Shown: piece after piece, positions 6,385-26,993 of the stretch
Numbering within the stretch: position 1 is the stretch's first letter
Layout: every line of letters starts with the position of its first letter
DNA from: Marinilabiliaceae bacterium
Lineage (GTDB): Bacteria; Bacteroidota; Bacteroidia; Bacteroidales; VadinHA17
NCBI GenBank assembly: GCA_036350795.1
Contig: JAZBNV010000028.1
Location: forward strand, 5,235 to 69,234
Direction of reading: 5' to 3'
DNA length: 64,000 nucleotides
Notes under the pieces: model-generated
The model's database searches: none
What the model saw: only the letters and a program-made list of their open reading frames with translations
What the model was told of the DNA's origin: nothing
Position numbers and translations under genes: made by a program

Positions 6385-7497
6385 ATGTTAAGAACTGAGA
6401 AGGGACTGCTGGGAAAAAAATCAAGTTACTTTATCACTTTTGAGAACTATGGTGATTTCAGCCTGTTGAACATCAATATTATAATATCTGATAAGCCTGT
6501 CGATACAGGTATTATTGCCGCGATAGAAGACCTGCTCTGTTCAAAGAAAGCAAAAGTCTTACTCGCTCTCGCTTTTGCCGGGCATAATTCTCCATACCTT
6601 GATCTTGTTAGCGGACTCGGGAAATCAGAAATTGTAAATATTCAGCTTCCCTTAATGTTATATGCTAAGTCTGATACCCTTAAGATACAGTTTATATGCA
6701 CTGATAGTAAGAATGTTAGCTCTAAAGGGGATAGTTCTGAGATAAAGATTCCTGGTACTGATTCCATAAGATTTGTCTATCTTAATGCGCTCATAGATAG
6801 AAGCCGGGATTCCGGGAGTTCAGATCAGGCTGCAGGGGTATTCAATACCCTGAAATCCGGCTTGAAGGATAATAATCTTGAGCCTGCTGGTATTGTAAGA
6901 ACCTGGATTTACCTCGATAATATTCTTGGCTGGTATGACGAATTCAACAGCGTACGTTCGGCATATTTTAAGGAACATGGAATCTTCGATTCCCTGGTCC
7001 CGGCAAGCACAGGAATTGGATCAGCTAATGCCTTCAAAAGAGCAATTGTTTTATCGGGACTGGCAATCGAGCGTAGTGAAGGCCTGAGTATTGAGACCAT
7101 AAGTTCACCGCTTCAATGTGAGGCACTTGACTACAAGAGCTCCTTTTCGAGGGCAATAAGGCTTAAGTCCAAAGAATATAAGAAACTTATGATCAGTGGA
7201 ACAGCAGCTATACTGCCTGGCGGAGAAACTGCTCATATCGGTGAAATGAAAAAGCAGGTGGAAATGACTTTCCGGGTCCTGAAGGCAATCTTAAACAAGG
7301 AAGGAATGGATTTCCAGGATGTTTCGAGGGCAATAGCTTACTTTCCTGACAGCACTACGAAAAATGTTTTAATTGATTGTTGCAGGCAAAATAAGCTGAA
7401 TGCTGATACTGTTCTTATGGTAGAAGCCGATATATGCAGGGAAGACCTGTTGTTTGAGATGGAGATGGATGCTTTCTCAGGCAAGCAGGGCAGCTAA
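6385..7497 (+). CDS. Tandem RidA/YjgF-fold protein, chorismatase (FkbO/Hyg5)-like
   Basis: VRTWIYL, PASTGIG, SSFSRA, ISGTAAI and DICREDLLFEME motifs. Confidence 0.7.
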   Translation: MLRTEKGLLGKKSSYFITFENYGDFSLLNINIIISDKPVDTGIIAAIEDLLCSKKAKVLLALAFAGHNSPYLDLVSGLGKSEIVNIQLPLMLYAKSDTLKIQFICTDSKNVSSKGDSSEIKIPGTDSIRFVYLNALIDRSRDSGSSDQAAGVFNTLKSGLKDNNLEPAGIVRTWIYLDNILGWYDEFNSVRSAYFKEHGIFDSLVPASTGIGSANAFKRAIVLSGLAIERSEGLSIETISSPLQCEALDYKSSFSRAIRLKSKEYKKLMISGTAAILPGGETAHIGEMKKQVEMTFRVLKAILNKEGMDFQDVSRAIAYFPDSTTKNVLIDCCRQNKLNADTVLMVEADICREDLLFEMEMDAFSGKQGS

Positions 7498-8223
7498 GCC
7501 TTTCCAGGTAGTAAATATGCCCGCAAGAACCAGTAGCAGCAGGACTATGGTGCGTATTTTTCTTTCGTTTATAATTTTAGTGAGTCTTTCGCCCAGGAAA
7601 AAGCCGGCAATCATTGATGGTATGCAGAAAATAATCAGCAGTAGTTGCTCAGGGTCAATACTTCCGGTGACTGAATAGAGTGCGGTTGAGTATGCATATG
7701 AAACCAGGAAGAATACAGACATTGAATACCTGAACTCATCATGTTTGAGTTTTGTGCCACCAAGCATAAGAGCTGCAACAGGACCACCTATTGATGCACT
7801 TCCTGCAAGTATCCCACCTATAAGTGATGCCAGCGAATAAGCCATGCCAGGCCTGGCGAACCTTAGCCTGTAACCCGAAAACATTAAAATCGCAAAGATT
7901 AAAATTACCAGGCCTGCACAGGTTCTGAGAATCTCGTTGTTTATCCTGTTTAGCAGCAGTACACCTGCAGTAACACCCAGGCTCGAAAAAACAATAATAA
8001 TGATAAAATATCCTGACTTAATTAAACCCTTTGATTTTATGAGGTGTACGATAGAAAATGCCAGGTTAACCGCAACAAGCAGAACAACTGTTTCCCTGTA
8101 TGGAAGTATTAAACTCAGCAGTGGCAATGCTATCATTGCCAGGCCAAACCCGCTTAATCCTCTTACGATGCTTGCAAAGAAAATTATAAGAAAGACAGCA
8201 AGAAGCAGGTTCAGGTCAGGCAT
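7477..8223 (-). CDS. TauE/SafE (TSUP) family transporter
   Basis: GLSGFGLAMIALP motif and IGGP repeat; about 8 TM segments. Confidence 0.85.
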   Translation of the reverse strand: MPDLNLLLAVFLIIFFASIVRGLSGFGLAMIALPLLSLILPYRETVVLLVAVNLAFSIVHLIKSKGLIKSGYFIIIIVFSSLGVTAGVLLLNRINNEILRTCAGLVILIFAILMFSGYRLRFARPGMAYSLASLIGGILAGSASIGGPVAALMLGGTKLKHDEFRYSMSVFFLVSYAYSTALYSVTGSIDPEQLLLIIFCIPSMIAGFFLGERLTKIINERKIRTIVLLLLVLAGIFTTWKGLAALLA

Positions 8224-15039: not shown

Positions 15040-15066
15040 AAGTCCCGCTCGTTATAAGCGGGACTT
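15040..15066. terminator. Intrinsic terminator between convergent genes
   Basis: Perfect 10-bp stem AAGTCCCGCT / AGCGGGACTT with a 7-nt loop; T-rich tail on the minus strand. Confidence 0.75.
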
Positions 15067-15119
15067 AAATGCCCATTTCAATAGCAGACTTGTATAATAG
15101 GCTTCGGTAGGAGTAATCA

Positions 15120-15956
15120 TCAAATAGCGATCCTGGATTTAATCGTAAATTCTTCTTTCCCTACATCCTCAAAAATTTTCCTTTCCTGCACAGAGAAATA
15201 TATAGCTGAACCATTAACCCCGTTTGGTTCAATCCAAAGATTTCCCCCCATACTGCTTATTAGCTTTTGAGCCAGTATTAATCCAATTGCAGCAAAGGTA
15301 TTGTTGTTTTTGCCAAGCAAATTCTGTAATTCCTCACCTGAGAGAAGCTGCTTGTTGAGATGATATCCGGAACCTGAATCTATAACGTAAAAAATAACCC
15401 GTTTATCATCCCGTTTGTAACCTAATTTAACGTAACCCGAAGATGTGTGTTCAATAGCATTCTGAAAGAGGTTTTTAAGTACCCGAATTACTTTTTCCTC
15501 TTCCAGATATACCTTATAATCTGATGGAATCTCTTCCAGAACCAGTGAAACCTGGTTCCGGTCAAGCTTTGATAAGGAATTATTCAGATCAATTGCAAGG
15601 TTCTGCATAAATATCCCCAGTTCGCTCTTTTTAAGATTTGTTTTTGGAGATTCAGAATCAAGCATTGCCGAATCAAGAAAATTGTCAAATAACGTAATAA
15701 GTTGCTCGCATGAATTTAAAATATGATCAGAATATTCTTTTCGCTCCATAAGATTGCAGTTCTCATTACTCTGCAGAAATGAGAATGCTACAATGGAGTT
15801 CATATATGTTCTGACTTCGTGTGAAAGACCTGTTAATATTTTGGGGCAACTGAGAATGTTTTTATCATCGCATGAAATACCTCCTTCTGCACGATTTCCA
15901 GACTGGCTGAACCTGTCTGCAAATTTCTTTATATGTCCCTGGTCGGTGTTAAACAT
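15120..15956 (-). CDS. Sensorless cytoplasmic histidine-kinase-like protein (HisKA + degenerate HATPase_c)
   Basis: H-box LSHEVRTYMN, N-box NLFQNAIEHT and G1 DSGSG are present. The F box is not recognisable and G2 is degenerate (AAIGL). Confidence 0.8.
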   Translation of the reverse strand: MFNTDQGHIKKFADRFSQSGNRAEGGISCDDKNILSCPKILTGLSHEVRTYMNSIVAFSFLQSNENCNLMERKEYSDHILNSCEQLITLFDNFLDSAMLDSESPKTNLKKSELGIFMQNLAIDLNNSLSKLDRNQVSLVLEEIPSDYKVYLEEEKVIRVLKNLFQNAIEHTSSGYVKLGYKRDDKRVIFYVIDSGSGYHLNKQLLSGEELQNLLGKNNNTFAAIGLILAQKLISSMGGNLWIEPNGVNGSAIYFSVQERKIFEDVGKEEFTIKSRIAI

Positions 15957-15983
15957 TTCCCGTTATATTGCCTGTGAATGCCT

Positions 15984-16730
15984 CTATTTTATTTTCCTTA
16001 ATAACTTCTTCGCATCTTTTCTGAAGCGACTTTCACTGTTTAGTATTCCCTTAAGCGCCAGCATTGCCTGGTCGTAGTCTTCCTCTTTGTAATAGCAAAG
16101 GGCCAGGTAGTAACTGGCTTCCTCCATAAACATATTGTCTTTATTGTCTATTACCTGTGCAAAAGAGCTGATTGCGCCTGAATAATCGTTAGTCTGCATT
16201 GCCGATAAGCCACTTAAAAACCTGGCCTGTACAGTACATGAAGACTGATCCGGAATTGCATTAAAGAGGGCGGAAGCTTCTTCATAATAACCCTTATTGT
16301 AGAGTTCCATGCCCGGTACAAGCTCAGCTGGTGTTATACCTGAAACTGCCCTGCTATTGCTTGTAACTTCATATGCAGTAAGAGCTTCAGATGTAAAATC
16401 ATCAATATTTATTGAGCCCCTGCTTAATAAAAACAAGGCACTGATAAGTATTAAGCCAAGAAAGACAGCTGCGTAGTTTGAAGGTACTTTCCTTACAGCG
16501 CGTTCTATATTGGTTTCCTTACGGTACCTGGCTTCAGCATTCATAAGTTTTTTACGAAGCTGTATTGCATCAAAGTTGGATGCAATCATCTCTGCTTTTC
16601 TTCGTAATTCAAGTTCATTACGCAGCCAGAGATTGCCTTCAAGCTCTTTCTCAAACCATCTTTTTTCTGATGGCTGCATTTTATCTTCCAGGTATCTCTC
16701 AATAAACCTGGTAAATTCAATCTTTTCCAT
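15984..16730 (-). CDS. Putative anti-sigma factor: N-terminal cytoplasmic helical domain, one TM helix, C-terminal TPR domain
   Basis: N-terminal 'IERYLEDKM..SEKRWFEKEL' anti-sigma-like pattern; TM 'YAAVFLGLILISALFLL'; TPR helices (GMELYNKGYYEEA, ASYYLALCYYK); ECF sigma in the same locus. Confidence 0.7.
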   Translation of the reverse strand: MEKIEFTRFIERYLEDKMQPSEKRWFEKELEGNLWLRNELELRRKAEMIASNFDAIQLRKKLMNAEARYRKETNIERAVRKVPSNYAAVFLGLILISALFLLSRGSINIDDFTSEALTAYEVTSNSRAVSGITPAELVPGMELYNKGYYEEASALFNAIPDQSSCTVQARFLSGLSAMQTNDYSGAISSFAQVIDNKDNMFMEEASYYLALCYYKEEDYDQAMLALKGILNSESRFRKDAKKLLRKIK

Positions 16731-16953
16731 TTTTATATAGGTATTTCATGCATATCTGGTAGTTGTAATATCTTAATTAAGACACAGGGCCTTAAGTAAT
16801 TACCTATTTATCTATGCCAACTGGCGCATAATTTCTTATATGCACAAGAGCATTTTTGTTCGTTCTTATCTGCACCTGCCTTGCAAAAGCGGCAAACAGC
16901 AGAATAAGTTCAATATGTCAAAGAGACCAGCTCTCCGTATTCAAAGAGCTTTC

Positions 16954-17097
16954 CTAAATCTCAGGATCTACTGTTACCGGAGGTGTAACCGTTCCTTTAT
17001 TGTCGCCATCACCACCTCTTACATTAATCATTTCTTCGTCAGAAAGTAAAAAATTGTTGAAAGTCTCGAAATTGGTTTCTTGATTCAGGTTTTTCAT
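16954..17097 (-). CDS. Double-glycine leader peptide precursor, 47 aa (below the ORF-track cutoff)
   Basis: Manual translation: MKNLNQETNFETFNNFLLSDEEMINVRGG|DGDNKGTVTPPVTVDPEI*. LSDEEMINVRGG matches the LSxxE(L/M)xx(I/V)xGG leader consensus. A C39 ABC exporter lies 4 kb away. Confidence 0.82.
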   Translation of the reverse strand: MKNLNQETNFETFNNFLLSDEEMINVRGGDGDNKGTVTPPVTVDPEI

Positions 17098-17137
17098 CAC
17101 TTTAAATTTTTTGTTATTGATTCGGGTTATTTATTAC

Positions 17138-17176
17138 GTTACATATATACATGTAACAAACCCCCTGTTTGTGACA
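17138..17176. promoter_or_regulatory. Overlapping inverted repeats upstream of the peptide gene (candidate ECF promoter or operator)
   Basis: GTTACAT-N6-ATGTAAC (17138-17157) and TGTAACAAAC-N5-GTTTGTGACA (17152-17176). Confidence 0.45.
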
Positions 17177-17335
17177 CGAAAAAATCAACTTTTTTTAAAA
17201 TATTTTTTCAGATAGCTGTATGTATCAGAATATCAGGCGAATAAAAAAGTGAATTTTTTTGTCTTTTTGGAGTACTTTTGAGAAAATATTTGCGTTGATA
17301 TTTTTTTTGCACATTTTCGCATAAATTCAAGACGG

Positions 17336-20300
17336 GTGAAAGAGATTATACCTAATATAAGAATTCTGGTCCTGACGGCAGTTTTGTCCTTGTCGGCGGC
17401 TGGCATTTCTTCTGCTGGCTCTTCTTCGGTTAATAACTATGTTCATGTAAGCAGCCAGTCCGACACTCTTATAAAGTACATCAACAGGTTCAGAACTCTT
17501 CTTGCCAATCCCCAATCGCCGGATTGTGCTCAGATGTATTCAACTTTGTCTGCCACTTATAGTAATATTAGCAGGGAGGGCAGCGACACTTTTACACTGG
17601 CCAAATTGTCGGATATTGCAAGGTACTGCGGTTATTATGATTTCGTAAGTGGCGAATACGAAGAATCCAGGAAGTTCTATATGGATGTGCTGGATATTGA
17701 ACGATTGAAGGGGGATACTATAAGTGATAATTTTCTCGTGGCTTTATCGCAGATAGGACTTTCATATTTTAATGAGAAAAGGTTTAGTGAGAGTATAGGA
17801 CCATTACATAATTCTATAATAATCCGTGAAAGACTAGAAGGTGAAAACTCCTCTGGATTGGTAAGGTCCCTAATTATACTTTCTTCTGCCTATGTCGAAT
17901 TTCCTGCACTTGACCAGGCAGAGTCAGCAGCACGAAGAGGCATTGATTTAATATTTGCAACAGGGAGCCAAAATAATCAATTATGCAAGCTCTACTATAC
18001 ACTGGGCAGAGTATATAAAGAGAAAGGAGATTACAATACGGCAAAATCGTATCTCATGGAAGCGAGGACCAGCTTTTTTAATTACCAGAGCGACCCTGAG
18101 GTTCTGCTTTTGATAAATAATTTTAATGCAGTTATAGCAAAATTACTCAATGATACTACAGCAGCCCTAGATTCCTACAGAGATGCAATAGAATTTATTG
18201 AAACATATAATTATGCCGGGTCAACAGTGCCTGCTGTTTATTCAAATTACGGCTTTTACCTGGCCGAACTCGGCAGACTGGATGAAGCAGAATCCATGTT
18301 CCTGGATGCAATCGCCTGTAGCGAAAACAATTTTGGAGCATACAGCAGTTCAAATTTGCGCGAACGGGAAAACTATGCTGATTTTCTCTTTGACAGCCGT
18401 AAGAATTACAGTAAGGCTGAAGCGATCTATTCAGATTTGTTTAGCCGGATAGAGTCTGTTAATGATATAGAATCACTTACATATGTTTGCCAGGGCTATG
18501 CGGAAGTAAAGTCATACGAAAAGGATTTTGAGGCAGCTCTGGATTTATATTACATGGTTGATAAGCGCCAGGATGAAATGTCTCCATTAGACAGGGCATA
18601 CTACCTGCAGGGGCGGGGTGAAGTATTTCTTGACTATTACCTTCACTCCGATTCACTGAGTCTTCTTTCAGATGCACTCAGGGACTTCGATCTTGCAATG
18701 AATATTATTGATTCCTCCAAACTTGACCTCAATGTTGAGGCAAGCAGGCTGAATTTAACCGGCAGGTTTGATTTCTTTTCTGACAAGGCAATCAGGTCTG
18801 CTATTCTTCTCTACAATAAAACCCTGGACAGGTCTTACCTGGATAAGGCTTTTTCCTATTCAGAGAAATCAAGGGCCTCAACCCTGCTGGCTGCAACCAG
18901 GGAATCAAGGGCTATGAAATTTAATATCCCTGACAGCCTCCTGTTCAATGAAAGAGTATTATCAAGCAAGATAAAGGAGCTTGATGCAAGGATATTCACA
19001 GAAAAAGGCAGGGAGAGAGTAAATACCGGGGTTCTCACAGAACTGGAAAGCAGCAGGCTGGATGTATTTACAGAAAGAGAAAGGCTGGTGGATCATTTTG
19101 AAAGAGAATATCCTGATTACTACAGGCTAAAGCACAATACCAGGGTTGCCCAACCACAGGAAATTGTGAAACATATTGGCCGAAAAATGAACTTTATTGA
19201 ATACTATACCACAGACTCGACCATTTATATATTTGTAATAAACAGGGATGGAAGTCATATAGAAAGTGTGGAGATAGACAGCTCTTATAATAATATTATC
19301 AGGCAATTCAGAAGCGACCTGGTAAACCCTGTTTTTGAAAACGGTGTAAGAGACCAGTTTTCAAGGATTGTAAGCTCTGCTTACTACCTCTACAGTAAAT
19401 TAATTAAACCTGTTGAAGCTTACCTTGTATCTGATAAATTGCTGATTGCAGGTGATGAGCTCCTGGCATATATACCCTTCGAAGCCCTTGTGACAGATAC
19501 TGCAGGTATTTCTGCCGTGAATTACAGGAATCTTGCATTTCTATTCAGGGACTACGATATAGAATATACTTATTCGGCTACCTTACTGCTCGAAAATCCC
19601 GGTAAGGGGAAAAGTATATACAATAATGCCCTGGTTTTTGCACCCGGCTACGGCGGCGGATTATCTTCTGATTCAATAATGATATCGCGTCAGACTGAGA
19701 GGGAAGAACTGAAGGACATCCAGGGGGCTAAAGAAGAAGCCATTTATATAAGTGAGCTGCTTGGAGGGGATCTTTATATTGACACGGATGCAACTGAGGC
19801 CAATTTCATAAGAAAATGCAGCAAGCCCGCTGTTATTCACCTTGCAATGCATACCCTGATGAACGATATGGAACCCATGTTTTCAAGGATGGTTTTTTCT
19901 CTTAATGATTCTGTGGAGGATGGCCTTTTAAATACTTACGAGGTATACGATCTTGAGCTTGATGCAAAGATGGTCGTGCTTTCATCCTGTAATACAGGGA
20001 CGGGTTACCTCAGCAAGGGAGAAGGAGTTATAAGTCTTGCAAGGAGTTTTATGTTTGCCGGAGCACCAACGGTTGTTATGTCGCTGTGGGAAGTTGATGA
20101 TCAATCCGGAACAGATATTATAAAAACATTCTATAAACATTTAAAACAGGGCAGAAGTAAAAGTGAGTCATTGAGGAAGGCGAGAAAGAAATACCTTGCA
20201 AATGCAGGGCAGATGCATTCACATCCCTACTTCTGGTGCTCGCTGGTAATCCTGGGAGAAGACGAAGCTATATTCTTTAAGCTGAACAGGGTTTTTATTA

Positions 20301-20362
20301 TATCGGGAATTATTCTCCTGGTAATTGGAGGCATTTTTTATCGTAAGCTGTATCCTTCATAA
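17336..20362 (+). CDS. Exported TPR-CHAT (caspase/separase-like) cysteine protease with C-terminal membrane anchor
   Basis: N-terminal signal peptide; many TPR helices; CHAT motifs LAYIPFEAL, IHLAMH, VVLSSCNTG, VMSLWEVDD and HPYFW; C-terminal TM 'VFIISGIILLVIGGIFY'. Confidence 0.92.
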   Translation: MKEIIPNIRILVLTAVLSLSAAGISSAGSSSVNNYVHVSSQSDTLIKYINRFRTLLANPQSPDCAQMYSTLSATYSNISREGSDTFTLAKLSDIARYCGYYDFVSGEYEESRKFYMDVLDIERLKGDTISDNFLVALSQIGLSYFNEKRFSESIGPLHNSIIIRERLEGENSSGLVRSLIILSSAYVEFPALDQAESAARRGIDLIFATGSQNNQLCKLYYTLGRVYKEKGDYNTAKSYLMEARTSFFNYQSDPEVLLLINNFNAVIAKLLNDTTAALDSYRDAIEFIETYNYAGSTVPAVYSNYGFYLAELGRLDEAESMFLDAIACSENNFGAYSSSNLRERENYADFLFDSRKNYSKAEAIYSDLFSRIESVNDIESLTYVCQGYAEVKSYEKDFEAALDLYYMVDKRQDEMSPLDRAYYLQGRGEVFLDYYLHSDSLSLLSDALRDFDLAMNIIDSSKLDLNVEASRLNLTGRFDFFSDKAIRSAILLYNKTLDRSYLDKAFSYSEKSRASTLLAATRESRAMKFNIPDSLLFNERVLSSKIKELDARIFTEKGRERVNTGVLTELESSRLDVFTERERLVDHFEREYPDYYRLKHNTRVAQPQEIVKHIGRKMNFIEYYTTDSTIYIFVINRDGSHIESVEIDSSYNNIIRQFRSDLVNPVFENGVRDQFSRIVSSAYYLYSKLIKPVEAYLVSDKLLIAGDELLAYIPFEALVTDTAGISAVNYRNLAFLFRDYDIEYTYSATLLLENPGKGKSIYNNALVFAPGYGGGLSSDSIMISRQTEREELKDIQGAKEEAIYISELLGGDLYIDTDATEANFIRKCSKPAVIHLAMHTLMNDMEPMFSRMVFSLNDSVEDGLLNTYEVYDLELDAKMVVLSSCNTGTGYLSKGEGVISLARSFMFAGAPTVVMSLWEVDDQSGTDIIKTFYKHLKQGRSKSESLRKARKKYLANAGQMHSHPYFWCSLVILGEDEAIFFKLNRVFIISGIILLVIGGIFYRKLYPS

Positions 20363-20907
20363 TCTTCAAAGTCAGGATCAGCTTTAATAAGTTTGATAAG
20401 CTCTTCTTTACAGAGATATTTCTTTCTCCTTGCATAGGCAACACTTTTATAGCCCATTTCCCTCGCAATCTCTTCGTAAGTTTTTCCCTCCAGGTGCATG
20501 GTAAGAACTTTCTGACTTTCTGCTGGCAGTATAAGGAAAGCCCTCTGGACTATCTGTTCAATGGGTGTATCAAGAAGTTTCTCAAGCTCAGATTCATCCA
20601 TTATATCCTGATCATAATCGCTTTGCTCTTTCTTAAGCCTTAACTGGTTTGACCACAGGTTGCGGGCAATACCAAATACATATCCCTTGAGATCACAGCT
20701 TAGTTCAACTCCGTTGTGCTGGAATTTCTTAAATACCACCATCAGCGCATCCTGGAATACATCAAAAGCATCCGCCTCAGTTCCACTATTCTTAGTAATA
20801 TAAGATTTAACGGTACTGAAATAATTCTGGTAGAGGTAATTAAGTGTTTTGTCATCCCCCTTTCTTAAACCCTCAACCAGCTGTTTATCTGAGTGCTTCC
20901 TGAACAC
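20338..20907 (-). CDS. ECF-type sigma-70 factor
   Basis: Region 2 'DAFDVFQDALM...YVFGIARNLW' and region 4 'KTYEEIAREMG'; TATATTTG box upstream (20928-20935, minus). Confidence 0.92.
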   Translation of the reverse strand: MFRKHSDKQLVEGLRKGDDKTLNYLYQNYFSTVKSYITKNSGTEADAFDVFQDALMVVFKKFQHNGVELSCDLKGYVFGIARNLWSNQLRLKKEQSDYDQDIMDESELEKLLDTPIEQIVQRAFLILPAESQKVLTMHLEGKTYEEIAREMGYKSVAYARRKKYLCKEELIKLIKADPDFEDYEGYSLR

Positions 20908-21047
20908 TTTTTCTGAAGATTATATGACAAATATAGTATTTCCAAATAATATTACTCATCCTCAGGGCCAATTGCTGGCTTGCATAAGCCAGGTTTGCTT
21001 ACATTTAAATAATAGATATCTTTACTTTTTAATTGAAAATAACAGGA

Positions 21048-23234
21048 ATGTCTTTCCCTTTTGTACAGCAACCTGATGCTATGGATTGCGGACCCAGCTG
21101 CCTTAAAATGATAGCAGCATATTATGGTCGCGACCTTTCCCTGGCTAATCTCAGGGATACTTCATTTATTACGAGGGAAGGTGTGTCATTTCTCGGGCTT
21201 TCTGAAGCTGCAGAATCAGCCGGATTCAGAACTATAGGGGTAAGGATAGACTTTGAGAAGTTAAGGAACGACACCCCCTTGCCATGCATAGTTCATTACA
21301 GGCAAAATCATTTTGTTGTGGTGTACAGGATCAGGGGAGAGAAGGTATATATTGCTGATCCTGCTACAGGGAAGTTGATAGTGTCTAAAAGTGAATTTGA
21401 GAAGCACTGGGGCACTACCACCGTTGATTCACAACGTCAGGGGCTCGTACTGATTCTTCAGCCTTCCCCCAAATTTTATGAAGCTGAAGATGTCAGAAGC
21501 CAGGAGAAGGGGTTCAGGTTCCTCCTGAAATATGTCAGGCTCTACAGGAAGTTCTTTATCCAGTTACTTATCGGGCTGATAATCGGGAGCTTTATACAGC
21601 TGCTTCTGCCTTTTCTTACACAATCTGTAATTGATATAGGTATAAACACAGGGGATATAAAATTTATCTACCTGATACTCTTTGCCCAGCTGGCTCTTGT
21701 GGTCGGAAGAATGTCTGTCGATTTTATCAGAAGCTGGTTGCTGCTTCATATTGCAACCAGGGTAAATGTCTCTGTTATCTCAGGTTTCCTGTACAAACTG
21801 ATGTCGCTTCCCATCTCTTTCTTCGATACCAGGCTAACCGGTGACCTTTTGCAGAGGATAGATGATAATAACAGGATTGAAACTTTTTTTACCACAACCA
21901 CCCTTAACGTATTGTTCTCCTTTATCAATATCTTAATATTTGGTATCGTTTTAGCTATCTATGATATAAGGATATTGTTGCTCTTCGTGGCCGGAACAGG
22001 GCTCTATATTGCCTGGGTCCTGTTATTTATGAAGGCCAGATCGCGCCTCGACCACATCAGGTTTGCCCAGATGTCAGAGAACAACAGTAAGCTTATCGAA
22101 ATAATAAACGGGATGCAGGAGGTTAAGCTTACCCAGAGCGAAAGGAGTAAAAGGTGGGACTGGGAGAATCTCCAGGCAAAGCTGTTTAAAACCAAAGTAA
22201 AGGCTTTGAGTTTGTTGCAGTACCAGCAGGCAGGAGGGAGGCTGATAAATGAGGTAAGTAATATTTTGATTACGATTTTATCGGCCACTGCTGTAATTTC
22301 GGGCGACATTACACTGGGTGCCATGCTTGCTATCCAGTTTATTATCGGCCAGCTGAATACCCCGGTAAGTCAGATAACAAACTTTATACGAACTGCACAG
22401 GATGCCAGGATAAGTCTCGACCGGCTTGCTGAAGTACATGCTAAAGAGGAGGAGGAGAGCGCATCCGATATGAAAGTGCAGAACCTGCCCGCGGCCAGGG
22501 ATATTTATATTAATAATCTTTCATTCCAGTACGAAGGACCAAGATCGCCCTTTGTACTTAAAAATATTGACCTTGTTATCCCTAATAATAAGGTCACTGC
22601 CATTGTTGGTCCAAGTGGTAGCGGAAAAACTACCCTGCTTAAACTGATAATGGGATTTTACAAGCCTGTAGAGGGTGAAATAGTGATCGGAGATACCCTG
22701 CTTCCAAACCTGAGCGTTAAACTATGGAGGAGTAAATGTGGTGTTGTAATGCAGGATGGCTTTATCTTTCCTGACACAATTGCTTATAATATAGCACCCG
22801 GAATTGATATTATCGACCAGGACCGTTTCCTGAGAGCGGTTGATATTGCAAATATCAGGGGATTTCTTGAATCCCTCCCGCTAAGCTACAATACAAGGAT
22901 AGGGAACGATGGCAAGGGACTCAGCCAGGGACAGAAGCAAAGAATACTGATTGCACGTGCTGTTTATAAGGATCCGGAATACCTGTTTTTCGATGAAGCA
23001 ACCAATTCACTCGACGCAAATAATGAAAAGGTTATTACCGGTAATCTGAATTCTTTCTACTCGGGAAAAACCGTTATTGTTGTTGCGCACAGGCTCAGTA
23101 CTGTCAGAGAAGCTGATAATATTGTAGTTCTCGATGGCGGACGGATAGTAGAACAGGGAAGTCACGAGGATCTTGTAAGGAGCAAAGGCTCATATTTTAA
23201 CCTGATAAAGAACCAGCTGGAGCTGGGTACATAA
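21048..23234 (+). CDS. Peptidase-containing ABC transporter (PCAT: C39 peptidase + TMD + NBD)
   Basis: QPDAMDCGPSCL (catalytic Cys), NHFVV (His), IADP (Asp); Walker A GPSGSGKT, LSQGQKQR, FFDEATN. ATG at 21048 is preferred over TTG at 21033. Confidence 0.96.
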   Translation: MSFPFVQQPDAMDCGPSCLKMIAAYYGRDLSLANLRDTSFITREGVSFLGLSEAAESAGFRTIGVRIDFEKLRNDTPLPCIVHYRQNHFVVVYRIRGEKVYIADPATGKLIVSKSEFEKHWGTTTVDSQRQGLVLILQPSPKFYEAEDVRSQEKGFRFLLKYVRLYRKFFIQLLIGLIIGSFIQLLLPFLTQSVIDIGINTGDIKFIYLILFAQLALVVGRMSVDFIRSWLLLHIATRVNVSVISGFLYKLMSLPISFFDTRLTGDLLQRIDDNNRIETFFTTTTLNVLFSFINILIFGIVLAIYDIRILLLFVAGTGLYIAWVLLFMKARSRLDHIRFAQMSENNSKLIEIINGMQEVKLTQSERSKRWDWENLQAKLFKTKVKALSLLQYQQAGGRLINEVSNILITILSATAVISGDITLGAMLAIQFIIGQLNTPVSQITNFIRTAQDARISLDRLAEVHAKEEEESASDMKVQNLPAARDIYINNLSFQYEGPRSPFVLKNIDLVIPNNKVTAIVGPSGSGKTTLLKLIMGFYKPVEGEIVIGDTLLPNLSVKLWRSKCGVVMQDGFIFPDTIAYNIAPGIDIIDQDRFLRAVDIANIRGFLESLPLSYNTRIGNDGKGLSQGQKQRILIARAVYKDPEYLFFDEATNSLDANNEKVITGNLNSFYSGKTVIVVAHRLSTVREADNIVVLDGGRIVEQGSHEDLVRSKGSYFNLIKNQLELGT

Positions 23235-24550
23235 TGAATTACAGGAAACACGAAATAAGGGACTCATCTCCGGTAGAGGCTATAATAGGTAAGCCCCCGG
23301 GGGCAATTGTAAGATGGGGAATAACAATTATTGCTCTTGTTATAGTATTCGCTTTAGCTGCATCCTGGTATATTGAGTATCCATATACTGTAAGCGGTAA
23401 GCTTACTATAAGCTCTTCAAACCCGCCTGCCACACTTATGGCCCAGACCTCGGGTCGTATTGAAGAATTCTTTGTAAGCGAAGGACAGAAGGTTCACGAA
23501 AATGATATTCTTGCATTGATTCAAAGCTCTGCAAGCCTCGAAGATGTTACCAGCCTGTATAATATTATTAAGCTTACCGGGATAAATGTATCGGGCGATA
23601 CAGGGGCAAGGAATCTTAGCCTTTTTCCTGATAATATGGAGCTGGGCGAACTGCAAATGGTCTATTCTGCTTTCAGGTCAGCCTATATGAGTTATATAAA
23701 CCATATTGAAGTAGATTATTATGGGAAGAAGATTTCTGCACTTAATACCGAGATCAGCAGCATTGATCAATATATAGCAAGTCTTAACAGGAAGAAACTA
23801 CTGTTTGAAAAGAGAGTTTCACTTGCGGAAACAGAACATAGCAGAATGCTTGTGTTTATAAATGATTCTTTGATCTCACCCCAGGAAATTGAAGACTCTG
23901 AAAAGAAATTACTGCAGGATAAAATTGACCTTGAACAGGTTCAACAGGAAATAAATGCAAAAATAATTGAAAAGCAAACCCGGCTGCGCGACCTTGAAGA
24001 TTTTAAAGCTGCCAGGGAAAATGAGGTAAGGGAAAAATGGACCAGGCTGGAAGAAGAAAGACTTAAACTGGAGGGAGAACTTAGTTCATGGTTTTTGGAG
24101 CACCTTATTGCATCACCGATAAATGGCAGGGTTACCTTCTCTGATTACTGGGGAGAAAACCAGTCTGTAAAAGAAGGTGATATCGTAATGACCGTTATAC
24201 CCGATGGAGAAAACCGGACAGTAGGTCGCATGCAACTGCCAATGAGAGGATCGGGCAGGGTTGAACCCGGTCAGAAAGTTATCGTTAAGCTCGAATCATA
24301 TCCGTATATACAATATGGTATTCTGGAGGGCAGGATTGAAACAATTTCACTTGTTGCAAATGAAGAAAGATATGTTGCAGATATAGAATTTCCCAGGGGA
24401 CTTGTTACAGGAACAGGCAAGGAGCTTATATTCTCGCAGAATATGTCAGGAAATGCAGAGGTGGTTACCGAGAAAATGAAACTGATTGAACGTATTATAT
24501 ATCCACTGCGCTACCTTATTGAGCGTAATCGTATGCTCTCGGGCAACTAG
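23234..24550 (+). CDS. HlyD-family membrane fusion protein
   Basis: N-terminal TM, lipoyl-like 'SGRIEEFFVSEGQKV', long coiled coil and 'YPYIQYGILEG'; translationally coupled to the PCAT. Confidence 0.93.
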   Translation: MNYRKHEIRDSSPVEAIIGKPPGAIVRWGITIIALVIVFALAASWYIEYPYTVSGKLTISSSNPPATLMAQTSGRIEEFFVSEGQKVHENDILALIQSSASLEDVTSLYNIIKLTGINVSGDTGARNLSLFPDNMELGELQMVYSAFRSAYMSYINHIEVDYYGKKISALNTEISSIDQYIASLNRKKLLFEKRVSLAETEHSRMLVFINDSLISPQEIEDSEKKLLQDKIDLEQVQQEINAKIIEKQTRLRDLEDFKAARENEVREKWTRLEEERLKLEGELSSWFLEHLIASPINGRVTFSDYWGENQSVKEGDIVMTVIPDGENRTVGRMQLPMRGSGRVEPGQKVIVKLESYPYIQYGILEGRIETISLVANEERYVADIEFPRGLVTGTGKELIFSQNMSGNAEVVTEKMKLIERIIYPLRYLIERNRMLSGN

Positions 24551-25524
24551 GGCCGCTGCTCAAAACAGTCGGTGCAAACAGCGGATGATTTATCTGAGAA
24601 CTTCTCCAGCTCCCTGTAGTATTTTTCTCTTGCTTCAGATGCCTCCTCTTTACCTGTAAGTTTAAGTTTAACTTCTGTACCTGCCCTGATCTGCCCCAGT
24701 TTATACATATCGGCATGGATAATATTTGCAAACTGGGGATATCCTCCAATGGTCTGGCAATCGCTGCCCATTATTATTGGCTTTCCATCAGGAGGGACCT
24801 GTATAGTGCCAGGATGAACTGCATAGCTGAGTATCTGCCTTCCCGGAATTGCGCCGGGGTCACTTCCTTCGAGCCGGATACCCATCCTGTTTGACTGCGG
24901 AGATACGCTAAACTCCCGGCCCAGCAAACTATTTCTTATTTTCTCCGGAAACATATCAAAATTAACTCCTTCTGTAACTCTTAATACCATTTTATCAGGG
25001 AAAGAGGGGATTGAACCTGCGGGTGCAGATCTCTTTTTCAGCACGTTTAAAACTGAAGGATAAAGTGGAATAATGTCGTTCTTTTCGAGCATCCTTCCCC
25101 TGTAGCCTCCAAGTCCGGCCGGAATATATGTTGACATGCTGCCAAGTACTGGATCGATCCTGAAACCACCGGAGATAGCAAGGTAATTTCGCATGCCGCT
25201 GGCCAGTTTATCAATCCTCAGCCGGTCACCCTTCGATGCTCTTACAGCTTTCCAGCATTCTATTTTTTTATTTCCCAGTATAACTTCTGCTTTACCCCCT
25301 GTTATTGAAAACACCGCCGTCGACAGGAATTCAATTTCAAGGCCATGGAATATCGATTCAATTACAGCTTCACCCGGGGTGTTCCTTACCAGCCAGTTAG
25401 CAACAATATACGAATATTCGTCCATGGCACCTGCTGAAGGTAAGCCATACTCCCTGTATCCAAACCTTCCTTTATCCTGGATTGAAGCACCAAAACCCTT
25501 ATCTGTAATTATTATTCCTTTCAT
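24547..25524 (-). CDS. pxpC: 5-oxoprolinase subunit C
   Basis: IQDKGRFGY, GAMD, SNRMGIRL, GTIQVPPDG and QTIGGYP motifs. Confidence 0.9.
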   Translation of the reverse strand: MKGIIITDKGFGASIQDKGRFGYREYGLPSAGAMDEYSYIVANWLVRNTPGEAVIESIFHGLEIEFLSTAVFSITGGKAEVILGNKKIECWKAVRASKGDRLRIDKLASGMRNYLAISGGFRIDPVLGSMSTYIPAGLGGYRGRMLEKNDIIPLYPSVLNVLKKRSAPAGSIPSFPDKMVLRVTEGVNFDMFPEKIRNSLLGREFSVSPQSNRMGIRLEGSDPGAIPGRQILSYAVHPGTIQVPPDGKPIIMGSDCQTIGGYPQFANIIHADMYKLGQIRAGTEVKLKLTGKEEASEAREKYYRELEKFSDKSSAVCTDCFEQRP

Positions 25525-26240
25525 TCCAGGATTTCCTTCCTTACAGAATAATGGCCGGATCTCAGGTCTTCGGCAATATTAAAATATTCATCAAGACTGA
25601 CAGCTTCGAATTTAATATAAGAACCGGCTCTGAACAGAAATGGTTCTTTCTGCGAGAAGTCAAATAAACTCAGGGGAGTTTTACCAATTATCTGCCATCC
25701 GCCTGGCGATTCCAGTGGATATATACCTGTTTGATCGCCGGCAATTCCTACACTTCCAGCCTTAATCTTAAGAACCGGAGTTTCCTTCCTGGGAAAGGCT
25801 ATCCTCTTATCCATGCCTCCAAGGTAGGGGAACCCGGGCGTAAAGCCAAGCATATAAATTCTATAGGGCTTTTCGGAGTGTATCCTGATAAATTCTTCTT
25901 CCGGCAGTCCTTTCTCTTTTGCAATATACTCAAGATCAGGACCATACGCTCCTCCATAAGATACTGGAACATAAATAACAGTTTTTTCATTCCTATGCAG
26001 GTTTTCCTGCAGTTTATGCAGATGCCCTGAGATTTTTCCTCTTATTTCCGCCAGAGTGGTACTGGCATTGTTAAAATAGACCATCAACCCGGTATATGAG
26101 GGGACTGATTCAATATATCCCTTTATACCTGATGCACGTAAGGCAAGGTGTAAGTCAATAATGCTTTCGGATATTGTTTCATCTATACTGTTACCAAAGC
26201 TACAAAAGACAGCTGATTCGCCGGAAGGTATAAATTCCAT
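25521..26240 (-). CDS. pxpB: 5-oxoprolinase subunit B
   Basis: YGPDL, LGFTPGFPYLG and GIYPLESPGGWQIIG motifs. Confidence 0.92.
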   Translation of the reverse strand: MEFIPSGESAVFCSFGNSIDETISESIIDLHLALRASGIKGYIESVPSYTGLMVYFNNASTTLAEIRGKISGHLHKLQENLHRNEKTVIYVPVSYGGAYGPDLEYIAKEKGLPEEEFIRIHSEKPYRIYMLGFTPGFPYLGGMDKRIAFPRKETPVLKIKAGSVGIAGDQTGIYPLESPGGWQIIGKTPLSLFDFSQKEPFLFRAGSYIKFEAVSLDEYFNIAEDLRSGHYSVRKEILE

Positions 26241-26252
26241 ACAGGCACTAAT

Positions 26253-26993
26253 TTATCTGGCTCTTATAATATAAGCCCGTGAATTAATTTCTTTTCTGAG
26301 ATTCTCTGCAAAAACAAGGGCTTCACGGTTATCCCCGTGTAAGCATATTGTTTCTGCCACAATATCTATATAATCACCTTTTATGCTTTTAACCTTCCCT
26401 TCTTCCAGCATTGTTATCACCCTCCCGATACACTCATTAACATCATGTATTACAGCTCCCTCAATATTCCTGTCAACCAGTGAGCCATCATTATTATAGG
26501 CCCTGTCGGCAAATACCTCCGATACAAAGTCCAGACCACTTTCCCTGCATGCCTTTTCCAGTTCACTCTTCCATGGTCCGAATACCTTTGCTCCCGGGCA
26601 GGTCTTTTTTATGGCAGTAATAATTGCCCTGGCGGTAGTGATATCTTTCGCTGCCATATTATACAGGGCTCCATGTGCTTTAACATGCTTAAGTACAGCT
26701 CCTGATAATGATACAATTCCGGATAGTGATCCTAACTGGTAAGCTGTAATAATTTGCAGCTCAGCAGGCGACATTTTTATTGGCTTCCTCCCGAATCCTT
26801 CCCTGTCAGGAAAGCCCGGGTGGGCTCCAATTGATACACCGGCCTTAAGGGCCAGCTTAACGGTTTTATACATCAGAGCAGGTGATCCGGCGTGCAAGCC
26901 ACATGCAATATTGGCAGAGCTGATATGCTTCATCAGGTCCTTATCCATCATAAATCCCTCACCAACATCCGCATTAAGATCAATTTGTTTCAT
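26253..26993 (-). CDS. pxpA: 5-oxoprolinase subunit A (LamB/YcsF)
   Basis: IDLNADVGE, SANIACGLHAG, HVKAHGALYN, EVFADR and CLHGD motifs. Confidence 0.93.
   Translation of the reverse strand: MKQIDLNADVGEGFMMDKDLMKHISSANIACGLHAGSPALMYKTVKLALKAGVSIGAHPGFPDREGFGRKPIKMSPAELQIITAYQLGSLSGIVSLSGAVLKHVKAHGALYNMAAKDITTARAIITAIKKTCPGAKVFGPWKSELEKACRESGLDFVSEVFADRAYNNDGSLVDRNIEGAVIHDVNECIGRVITMLEEGKVKSIKGDYIDIVAETICLHGDNREALVFAENLRKEINSRAYIIRAR

Follow-up and report, generated by a model that had tools for sequence, protein, structure and literature searches.

Dedicated peptide autoinducer circuits are textbook material for Gram-positive bacteria; in Bacteroidota, to our knowledge, they are essentially undescribed. 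The ComC/ComAB/ComDE, Blp and Pln systems combine a peptide with a double-glycine (GG) leader, a peptidase-containing ABC transporter (PCAT) with an accessory protein, and an autoinduced peptide operon. In the sigmaE pathway of Escherichia coli, the regulatory domain of DegS binds peptide C-termini, and DegS then cuts RseA. In Nostoc, the CHAT protease HetF belongs to the same developmental pathway as HetC. HetC itself is a diderm PCAT with a reported link to cell signalling by peptides (PMC10986499). In the type III-E craspase, the TPR-CHAT protein Csx29, together with Cas7-11, cleaves Csx30, an inhibitor of CASP-sigma, which resembles extracytoplasmic function (ECF) sigma factors (PMC10028731, in the sections drawn on here, which also cite the cleavage of RseA by DegS). 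In the DdvA/DdvS system of Myxococcus xanthus, a zinc anti-sigma domain, a transmembrane (TM) helix and a periplasmic TPR-CHAT region are joined in one protein; its CHAT domain was proposed to be a site-1 protease ahead of RseP, phage was proposed as the cue, and fused forms were found in Myxococcota and in one Comamonas, not in Bacteroidota (PMC11506125, as far as the available part of that paper goes). Here we describe a locus at positions 15120-24550 of a 64,000-nucleotide stretch of DNA (the window) from a Marinilabiliaceae bacterium (assembly GCA_036350795.1, contig JAZBNV010000028.1, positions 5,235 to 69,234, forward strand), which encodes a GG-leader peptide, a PCAT, a TPR-CHAT protease, an ECF sigma factor and a candidate anti-sigma factor (ASF). 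At about even confidence, we read it as a loop of peptide signalling that is complete in itself and builds on a split DdvA-like switch of ECF sigma, anti-sigma and TPR-CHAT, with the peptide left unmodified; the switch would control the exported peptide, which probably feeds back on it.

An earlier note on this DNA had described seven contiguous genes at this place. The list of open reading frames (ORFs), together with Pfam and NCBIfam profiles, bears this out, each ORF lying where the note had put it and carrying the domains it had named:

15120-15956, minus strand: histidine kinase (HK), 278 aa, with HisKA and HATPase_c above the Pfam cut-offs
15984-16730, minus strand: ASF, a TM-TPR protein of 248 aa, with matches to TPR families
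16954-17100, minus strand: double-glycine-leader precursor peptide, 48 aa from a GTG or 47 aa from the ATG at 17097, no family
17336-20362, plus strand: TPR-CHAT protease, 1008 aa, with CHAT (PF12770, E 6e-55) and TPR_12
20338-20907, minus strand: ECF sigma factor, 189 aa, with Sigma70_r2/r4_2 and TIGR02937
21033-23234, plus strand: PCAT, with Peptidase_C39 (E 1.9e-36), ABC_membrane and ABC_tran, and with the conserved start codon, an ATG, at 21048
23234-24550, plus strand: HlyD-family periplasmic adaptor, with HlyD_3 and TIGR01843 (E 1e-29)

With DdvA, as the cited part of its description presents it, the locus shares an ECF sigma factor, a single-pass protein, here a candidate anti-sigma factor, that would control it, and a TPR-CHAT region with a His-Cys dyad, here predicted to be periplasmic. 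It differs in being divided between two proteins: ASF carries a small TPR domain and has neither a CHAT domain nor zinc ligands, and the TPR-CHAT protease has a predicted signal sequence of its own and an anchor at its C-terminus, and no N-terminal anti-sigma domain. Here the peptide operon forms the predicted regulon, and not a CBASS/CRISPR island as in the same part of that study, and the switch is joined by a PCAT and by an exported peptide of the cell's own making. The proposed switch resembles craspase in that cleavage of a sigma inhibitor by a TPR-CHAT protease would release an ECF-type sigma factor; in the sections cited, however, craspase is cytoplasmic and RNA-activated via Cas7-11, whereas the protease here is predicted to be exported and no Cas family was matched among the seven genes and six flanking genes. 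The earlier note had named craspase as a precedent. As an example of a CHAT protease that cuts a sigma inhibitor it stands, but DdvA/DdvS of M. xanthus has to be placed beside it as the closest known system, and the locus resembles a split form of DdvA/DdvS.

In the model proposed below, as in the DegS-RseA-RseP pathway, a peptide C-terminus would activate a membrane-anchored periplasmic site-1 protease, the anti-sigma factor would be cut, and an M50 protease would follow. DegS, in contrast, is a PDZ serine protease and not a TPR-CHAT protein, its ligands are the ends of misfolded porins and not a peptide made and exported for the purpose, and its pathway includes neither a PCAT nor autoinduction. 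The Com, Blp and Pln systems likewise have a GG-leader peptide gene directly 5' of the sensing genes, whose product is cut and exported by a PCAT; their receptor is a polytopic kinase in the membrane, paired with a LytTR response regulator, whereas here the HK is soluble, the locus holds no receiver, the regulator is an ECF sigma factor with an anti-sigma factor and a caspase-like protease, and the host has an outer membrane. RRNPP systems differ in having a cytoplasmic TPR receptor, fused to an effector or HTH domain, for an imported peptide, both TPR domains here being predicted to be extracytoplasmic. HetC and HetF provide a diderm PCAT tied to peptide signalling and a CHAT protease in the same process, but they have no ECF/anti-sigma pair, their genes are not clustered in this way, and there is no evidence linking HetF to peptide sensing. 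From the radical-SAM-associated GG peptides of TIGR04149/TIGR04148 the locus differs in that precursor and maturase fall below the cut-offs. Full-text searches of the literature returned no description that joins a GG peptide or a PCAT with CHAT and an ECF sigma factor in Bacteroidota or in any diderm. The word CHAT is absent from the main text of the ECF reclassification paper (PMC7826278); the supplementary tables of that paper, or table S7 of the DdvA paper, may list a CHAT-associated Bacteroidota ECF group. The parts of the locus are of known kinds, and their wiring is new.

We propose that the loop would operate as follows. The ECF gene, the CHAT gene and PCAT-HlyD would be transcribed from housekeeping-type promoters, and ASF, as a single-pass anti-sigma factor, would hold sigma at the membrane. 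The exported, membrane-anchored TPR-CHAT protein would be a regulated periplasmic site-1 protease that probably cuts the linker of ASF, possibly at Arg-Ser, after which an M50 site-2 protease would release sigma. The freed sigma would read one promoter in the genome, that in front of peptide-ASF-HK. The C39 domain of the sole PCAT would cut the 47-aa precursor after Gly-Gly, and the product would be exported, aided by HlyD, as an unmodified, acidic, Pro-rich 18-mer. This mature peptide, with its conserved C-terminus, would in turn be sensed by either periplasmic TPR domain, that of CHAT or that of ASF, closing an autoinduction loop that co-induced ASF would damp; the sensor-less HK, induced with the peptide, would be the likely output branch. 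We infer in this scheme the binding of sigma to ASF, the cleavage of ASF by CHAT, the peptide as the ligand, the sign of the feedback and the role of the HK.

The first line of evidence is the conservation of the gene set, which is tightly kept in a group of sediment Bacteroidales. Of the other genomes of the family, 33 of 36 have a CHAT homolog, as do 7 of the 24 genomes sampled from other families of the order. Among the 20 neighbourhoods that were fetched, the same gene order and the same flanks recur in the loci numbered L039-L051 (L050 and L051 lack a HlyD match), the gene set is rearranged yet together in L054-L057, and in 17 of the 18 loci with ASF and CHAT a short GG-leader ORF, read from the same strand, lies just 5' of ASF, L058 being the exception. 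When one genome was scanned for each species, 599 candidate stretches yielded 583 relatives, and the best 80 of these (L059-L138) were annotated by profiles; nearly all come from uncultured Bacteroidales, to which is added Prolixibacter bellariivorans ATCC BAA-1284 (L133). Components were counted only in loci with enough flank; the genomes being kin, the counts cannot be taken as independent of one another. By these counts, an ECF gene adjoins CHAT in 73 of 73 loci and ASF is present in 63 of 64; a GG peptide occurs in 62 of the 63 ASF loci, the HK in 53 of 58 loci and the PCAT in 45 of 49. The co-occurrence of TPR-CHAT, ECF sigma, anti-sigma-like protein and PCAT that the earlier note suggested looking for in Bacteroidota is seen in these counts.

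Independent support for the linkage comes from the variants. PCAT-HlyD has moved to the HK side in L054, L056, L057, L101, L123 and L135. Genome G063 has an ECF>ASF>PCAT>HlyD operon. There, a second ECF-ASF pair stands directly 5' of PCAT-HlyD in one apparent operon (L156:151-5116, plus strand), the CHAT locus of that genome (L109) being on another contig. In Prolixibacter the peptide is within the locus, PCAT-HlyD is elsewhere in the genome, and the locus has no HK. Further such variants are the tandem peptide genes of L122, L125 and L133, and the PCAT orthologs that lie elsewhere in the genome where a CHAT locus has none. These comparisons favour reading the seven genes as a single conserved unit with linked functions. 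If, on the contrary, the genes had merely been inherited side by side, the exporter and peptide part would have no functional coupling with the sigma and protease part. Most of the 80 loci do come from a single taxonomic order and have the same flanking genes, and many counts are not independent; but the linkage survives at least three kinds of rearrangement and is kept in loci without the flanking genes, and the peptide and ECF promoters of Prolixibacter have a motif in common. We consider simple inheritance of synteny extremely improbable.

The catalytic residues of the TPR-CHAT protease, His835/His839 (HLAMH) and Cys885 (SSCNTG), are invariant in 20 of 20 homologs. Hydropathy analysis places a hydrophobic segment at its N-terminus, and a TM helix followed by a basic tail at its C-terminus; on hydropathy only, the TPR-CHAT body is predicted to face the periplasm and to be anchored in the membrane C-terminally. 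The exported TPR-CHAT protease with a His/Cys dyad and a C-terminal anchor, as first proposed, is thus borne out by the invariant dyad and by hydropathy. The protein is single-copy in the genome of the window, an assembly of 188 contigs that is 95.75% complete and that also encodes an M50 protease. In comparisons with solved structures, the CHAT and ASF profiles matched generic TPR proteins only, and DdvA was not retrieved by sequence; matches to Rap and NprR (E 1e-11 to 1e-14) were weaker than those to the generic TPR proteins, and a profile search with the CHAT domain alone gave nothing useful.

The ECF gene is convergent with the CHAT gene and overlaps its 3' end. The encoded protein contains only regions sigma-2 and sigma-4, scores 61.3 bits against TIGR02937 (cut-off 42.9), and matches the structures of RpoE and SigW with E 2e-11. 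Its identity as an ECF sigma factor, which had been claimed before, is confirmed by the Sigma70_r2/r4_2 and TIGR02937 matches.

ASF comprises an N-terminal region (residues 1-80), a single TM helix (82-109), a linker with a near-invariant Arg127-Ser, and a TPR domain (140-248). By hydropathy, the more basic side of the helix is the N-terminal one, and residues 1-80 are predicted to be cytoplasmic, and the linker and the TPR domain periplasmic. The N-terminus weakly resembles an anti-sigma domain: zf-HC2 was matched in 3 of 18 ASF N-termini, weakly (best E 0.0038, profile search), and the clusters nearest to residues 1-80 in the Atlas are those of zf-HC2, RskA_N, RseA_N and DUF4880, at 0.82-0.86 and hence under its bar of 0.9. 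A profile search of solved structures with the N-terminus alone found no match in the PDB. In the ASF alignment, no His or Cys is conserved at the positions of the zinc-ligand motif HxxxCxxC, so that ASF, if it is an anti-sigma factor, would be a zinc-free one.

Gene order provides stronger support for ASF as an anti-sigma factor than these profile tests. In the window, ASF lies 3.6 kb from the ECF gene, inside the peptide operon, and is thus not ECF-adjacent. A gene of the ASF family directly follows the ECF gene, often overlapping it, in L058, L101, L120, L127-L129, L133, L135 and L156, and ECF and ASF genes both lie within 20 kb in 16 of 40 distant CHAT loci. The ECF-adjacent forms are basal in the ASF tree, in which ECF-adjacent L133 is sister to peptide-adjacent L137 (support 99/93), and one lineage carries both forms as paralogs. 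Tree and gene order place ASF in a family whose genes, across Bacteroidota, come directly after those of this ECF group. Of the anti-sigma-like TM/TPR protein in the original description, the TM helix, the TPR domain and the place of the family beside the ECF gene hold, while the matches to anti-sigma domains are only weak.

The exporter combines a C39 peptidase, with catalytic Cys and His, with ABC membrane and ATPase domains, as a PCAT does, and a cognate double-glycine substrate is encoded nearby, namely the peptide with ...EEMINVRGG. The C39 motifs DCGP..C, HF.V and DPA, which supply Cys, His and Asp, are kept in 55 PCAT homologs. The genome yields 40 ABC matches, among which only the PCAT of the locus covers the N-terminal peptidase part. 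HlyD has one N-terminal TM helix by hydropathy, and its gene is translationally coupled to that of the PCAT. Where a CHAT locus has no PCAT, orthologs at 58-61% identity are encoded elsewhere in the genome, in five of five genomes.

The leader of the precursor ends in ...LSDEEMINVRGG and is followed by the predicted mature 18-mer DGDNKGTVTPPVTVDPEI, in agreement with the 47-aa GG-leader peptide and 18-mer core read from this ORF before. A profile of the leader, run against 72,678 small frames of the genome, matched the peptide of the locus alone (E 6e-12), the next frame having E 2.4 and no GG; a regular-expression scan agrees that there is a single GG-leader peptide. The sole PCAT therefore has one visible substrate. 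The earlier note had allowed that the substrates of the PCAT might be encoded elsewhere; as it is, the GG peptide is the only candidate substrate of the genome's only PCAT.

Among 75 distinct precursors, the predicted mature cores have 10-31 aa (median 16) and a net charge of zero or below in 72; Cys is found in 4 and is absent from 71, PP[VI] occurs in 56, and the C-terminal residue is Ile in 49. Tandem peptide genes are present in L122, L125 and L133. Those of L125 show four synonymous differences and zero amino-acid changes over 16 codons, while their leaders diverge; those of Prolixibacter show nine nucleotide differences and two amino-acid changes in the mature part. Though the numbers are small, the tandem copies point to selection acting on the mature sequence.

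Several further observations concern the peptide genes. L079 (8722-9749) is the sole locus with ASF beside CHAT but without a peptide ORF, and its 278-nt gap retains a full promoter motif, which suggests that the peptide gene was lost recently. In a clade whose cores end in ...PPVIIEI (L110:15878-18426, L102, L107, L112-L114, L116, L117, L134, L138, L050 and L051), no HlyD match follows the PCAT; in L110, a DUF349 protein and a CTP synthase stand in its place. In Prolixibacter, a gene for a DPP-IV/S9 prolyl peptidase lies between CHAT and the ECF-ASF operon (L157, which is the same as L133, 3551-5692, minus strand), and orthologs at 57-58% identity are found near the locus in L136 and L137. 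The enzyme could process or degrade Pro-rich peptides, or be unrelated.

Against curated peptide families (TIGR04149, lantibiotic and class II bacteriocin leaders), the precursor gave sub-threshold matches confined to the leader, TIGR04149 scoring 13.3 bits with a cut-off of 25. Such matches, and a TIGR04148 maturase in the related locus L101, are what could be expected if the gene encoded the precursor of a bacteriocin or of a ribosomally synthesised and post-translationally modified peptide (RiPP), with maturase and immunity genes elsewhere and with the regulatory genes serving ordinary producer regulation. We regard this as very unlikely. The genome has no TIGR04148 maturase above the cut-off (best 34 bits versus 300) and no TIGR04149 match, and 71 of the 75 cores have no Cys. 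The nearby radical-SAM gene upstream of the locus was considered as a maturase and ruled out, being QueE-like and unlinked in rearranged loci. Profile annotation of 15120-24550 found no RiPP maturase, and no further ORF with a family match that might be an immunity gene, although small unannotated immunity proteins may be present; on both points the first description of the locus is upheld.

The control regions that could connect the sigma factor with the peptide operon are these:

17148-17177, minus strand: bipartite promoter GTGTCACAAA-N13-ACATGTA, with the ECF-type geometry GTnAC-N17-YATnWA and a T-tract upstream
20928-20935, minus strand: TATATTTG element upstream of the ECF gene, fitting TAnnTTTG
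15040-15066, minus strand: strong intrinsic-terminator-like hairpin, 11-pair stem with 6 GC pairs and a T-rich tail, which ends the peptide-ASF-HK operon
16929-16950, minus strand: weak terminator-like hairpin, 9-pair stem with 4 GC pairs, directly 3' of the peptide stop codon and a possible attenuator between the peptide and ASF-HK

The peptide promoter of the window consists of TGATTTTTTCGTGTCACAAA, 13 nt and ACATGTA. The exact pattern occurs at 43 sites in the 80 related loci. With a weight matrix made from these sites, the window site scores 55.6 bits and the next-best site in the whole genome 2.4 bits, so that the site is unique. The looser pattern GTnAC[AC]-N16/17-YATnWA is found 5' of the peptide genes in 43 of 60 loci, compared with 1 of 74 for the ECF genes and 15 of 4000 random pieces. 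The ECF genes are instead preceded by TAnnTTTG, which we take to be the housekeeping -7 promoter motif of Bacteroidota, in 62 of 74 loci versus 318 of 4000 random pieces.

An autoregulated operon is the usual case for ECF sigma factors. In Prolixibacter, the peptide-gene promoter and the ECF-operon promoter have GGGTWACCTTTT-N12-GTATTAAC in common at equal spacing: GGGTAACCTTTTTCGCTTTTCCGGTATTAAC precedes both peptide genes, and GGGTTACCTTTTGAGTTGAAAACGTATTAAC precedes the ECF-ASF operon, ending 9 nt before the likely ATG. Because 9 nt leave no space for a separate one, the shared motif is itself the core promoter; as the ECF operon carries it too, it is plausible by analogy that sigma feeds back on the peptide operon. 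For the window, we infer from the homology of sigma and from position that its sigma factor reads the GTCAC-N17-CATGTA promoter. The Prolixibacter genome as a whole has five matches to the pattern and the reversed control none; two of the five are one place at overlapping contig ends. The extra copies lie 5' of a CPBP/Rce1-like membrane protease (L153:6924-8333, minus strand) and about 770 nt 5' of a type IV pilin/prepilin-peptidase-like/PilB-like operon (L154:6977-7390, minus strand). By our own estimate about 0.4 chance matches are expected, and these sites are leads only.

Thirteen sediment metatranscriptome runs contain parts of the locus, and RNA contigs of four of them, assembled at a depth of 2-5, were placed on it. 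In all four runs contigs lie on 15071-17126, that is, on the genes for the HK, ASF and the peptide, and in two of the runs short pieces lie on the PCAT as well. The peptide gene is under RNA contigs in three of the four, and the fourth run spans 16786-16956. No RNA contig of the four runs lies on CHAT or ECF, absence of cover at this depth being no sign of silence. The uneven cover across the locus argues against carry-over of DNA. Contigs of three runs end at 15071-15072, beside the terminator stem at 15066-15040, and contigs of two runs end 22 nt downstream of ACATGTA, at 17125-17126, a weak hint that a 5' end is marked there. Around these contig ends, at 17121-17130, lies a conserved AACCC(G/T)GA(A/T)T element, which in most loci is found 20-35 nt downstream of ACATGTA and may mark the transcript start or belong to the 5' untranslated region. 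At position 17020, the RNA contigs of three runs have A instead of T, a synonymous change in a Val codon of the leader; the runs thus hold a close strain and not the same genome.

To place the switch in a wider context, we also considered CHAT loci outside this lineage. A sample of 40 such loci was taken from the 65 genomes with a CHAT match among 400 other sampled Bacteroidota genomes. The N-terminal hydrophobic segment is present in 39, both dyad motifs in 35 and the C-terminal anchor in 11; within 20 kb, 19 have an ECF gene, 17 an ASF and 16 both. In none of the 40 did profile searches find a PCAT or a convincing GG peptide. Six regular-expression hits to GG near these loci look spurious, either lacking a proper Met-started leader or falling inside unrelated frames. 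From these sequence comparisons, the exported TPR-CHAT protein, the ECF sigma factor and the TM-TPR anti-sigma-like protein appear as a widespread Bacteroidota triad, to which the peptide, PCAT-HlyD and the HK are an addition in one Bacteroidales lineage. The absence of GG peptides from homologous CHAT/ECF loci, which the earlier note had counted against its own proposal, thus holds for the distant loci but not within this lineage.

That triads without a peptide or PCAT exist implies that the triad has an input of its own, and the peptide could be output only: the triad would sense another envelope or external cue, and sigma would switch on a secreted effector peptide, be it an interspecies signal, an inhibitor or an antimicrobial, together with ASF and the HK, with neither self-sensing nor quorum sensing. 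The cue of DdvA is described as external and unknown (PMC11506125). The genome's sole strong promoter site is that of the peptide operon, as expected of a product, and the PCAT of L101, which stands beside a true TIGR04148 RiPP maturase, indicates that related exporters serve natural products. The cores, however, in their length, charge and near-absence of Cys, are unlike membrane-active bacteriocins as we know them, and no immunity gene is found in the locus. The peptide gene also stands directly 5' of the sensor genes in nearly all ASF loci, which is the arrangement of autoinducing peptide operons, and the mature core is conserved between tandem copies. We judge a peptide that serves as output only to be somewhat unlikely.

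The HK consists of DHp and CA domains only; it has no sensor domain, and no TM helix is predicted by hydropathy in 17 of 17 homologs. In 55 homologs the H box (SHExRT), the N box and the G1 box (DSGxG) are kept, and the G2 box, GxGLGL, is not recognisable. The kinase had been called degenerate, which fits its G2 region but not its conserved H, N and G1 boxes. It ends in ...RIAI (window 15120-15140), or (R/K)IAI more generally, with iai at 60% or more of the 55 sequences; the tail could be a docking or degradation tag. No receiver domain was found in any locus examined, and the window locus has neither a receiver nor a LytTR gene; nine LytTR-domain proteins are encoded elsewhere in its genome. 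Stand-alone LytTR proteins after the HK are confined to L101, L127 and L135. In L101, a variant with two ASF genes, they have 137 and 116 aa and directly follow the HK (6869-7282 and 7299-7649, both minus strand). Between the PCAT and the HK of the same locus lies the radical-SAM maturase of TIGR04148, 'GG_samocin_CFB', at 341.7 bits with a cut-off of 300 (L101:4489-5898, minus strand).

The operon can also be read as a split sensor kinase, in which the TPR domain of ASF would bind the peptide, the cytoplasmic part of ASF would control the soluble HK, and a response regulator or LytTR-type protein encoded elsewhere would bind two 9-bp boxes upstream of the peptide gene in the manner of ComCDE, with ECF and CHAT separate or loosely coupled. 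The order peptide-ASF-HK mirrors that of peptide-kinase operons, ASF and the HK adjoin in the 53 of 58 loci, and of the two ASF paralogs in one lineage, the copy linked to the peptide has retained the HK and the other sits with the ECF gene. The LytTR proteins behind the HK in three loci, and those elsewhere in the genome, could act in such a pathway, and the promoter boxes TGTCACAAA and TGACATGTA form an imperfect direct repeat about 20 bp apart. Yet the Prolixibacter locus has the peptides, CHAT and ECF-ASF but no HK, and the HK is missing in 5 of the 58 loci. Besides the want of a receiver domain in the loci examined, the LytTR proteins of L101 are too short to contain one, and the HK has no recognisable G2 box. 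The L133 motif, ending so close to the ECF start codon, leaves no space for a separate core promoter, and the most constant partners of the peptide are ECF and CHAT. We therefore find a split sensor kinase unlikely.

Profile annotation of the surrounding genes identified an alkaline phosphatase, the QueE-like radical-SAM protein and a TPR/PD40/OmpA protein upstream of the locus, and CT_A_B, CT_C_D, LamB_YcsF and Nramp genes downstream. These flanks are of unrelated housekeeping type, as had been claimed. The CT_A_B, CT_C_D and LamB_YcsF domains lie in the downstream neighbours at 24547-26993 of the window, minus strand. We take their family to include KipA/KipI of Bacillus subtilis, a histidine-kinase inhibitor pair; their position beside the locus is probably a coincidence, the synteny being lost in rearranged loci.

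Several results weigh against the proposed signalling loop and its split DdvA-like switch. In 16 of the 40 distant loci the triad stands without any GG peptide or PCAT in the vicinity, and its native input need not be a peptide. The assignment of ASF as an anti-sigma factor draws on the weak profile and Atlas matches given above and on gene order. The mirror-tree comparison of peptide-core with domain distances (55 loci, controlled for the transporter part of the PCAT) gave a partial rho of 0.30-0.35 for most domains, with 0.14 for the ASF linker and 0.12 for the C39 domain, and names no receptor. A peptide exported via a TolC-type channel must re-enter the periplasm, and there is no importer in the locus. 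In the lineage of the window the ECF gene is not preceded by the bipartite motif, the single exception among 74 aside, and the link between sigma and promoter is drawn there from Prolixibacter and L128 by analogy. Moreover, the two boxes of the promoter form an imperfect repeat of 9 bp and could be an activator site. Finally, the RNA data, being low-depth assembled contigs, give presence, and neither start site, strand nor level. We nevertheless retain the loop as an even proposition. In its most specific form, the C-terminus of the 18-mer would bind a periplasmic TPR domain and activate CHAT, ASF would be cut at the Arg-Ser linker, sigma would transcribe peptide-ASF-HK only, and the HK would relay the signal, which together would amount to peptide quorum sensing in a diderm. 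This full version we consider possible but doubtful.

TPR-CHAT proteases have been tied to sigma control only recently, with craspase and DdvA, and in the available part of the DdvA study its activating signal is still unknown. At the locus described here, a candidate ligand, an exporter, a protease, an anti-sigma factor, a sigma factor and a target promoter are encoded together, and this in dozens of species, so that a signal path becomes testable with defined parts. Prolixibacter bellariivorans ATCC BAA-1284 is a carrier that is in culture and non-pathogenic, with two tandem peptide genes whose promoter is shared with the sigma operon. If self-sensing fails, a split DdvA-like triad would still be widespread in Bacteroidota and would control a secreted peptide in one lineage. 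If the quorum-sensing reading is true, the peptides would provide DdvA-like TPR-CHAT anti-sigma switches, which are widespread in both Bacteroidota and Myxococcota, with their first class of natural ligands.

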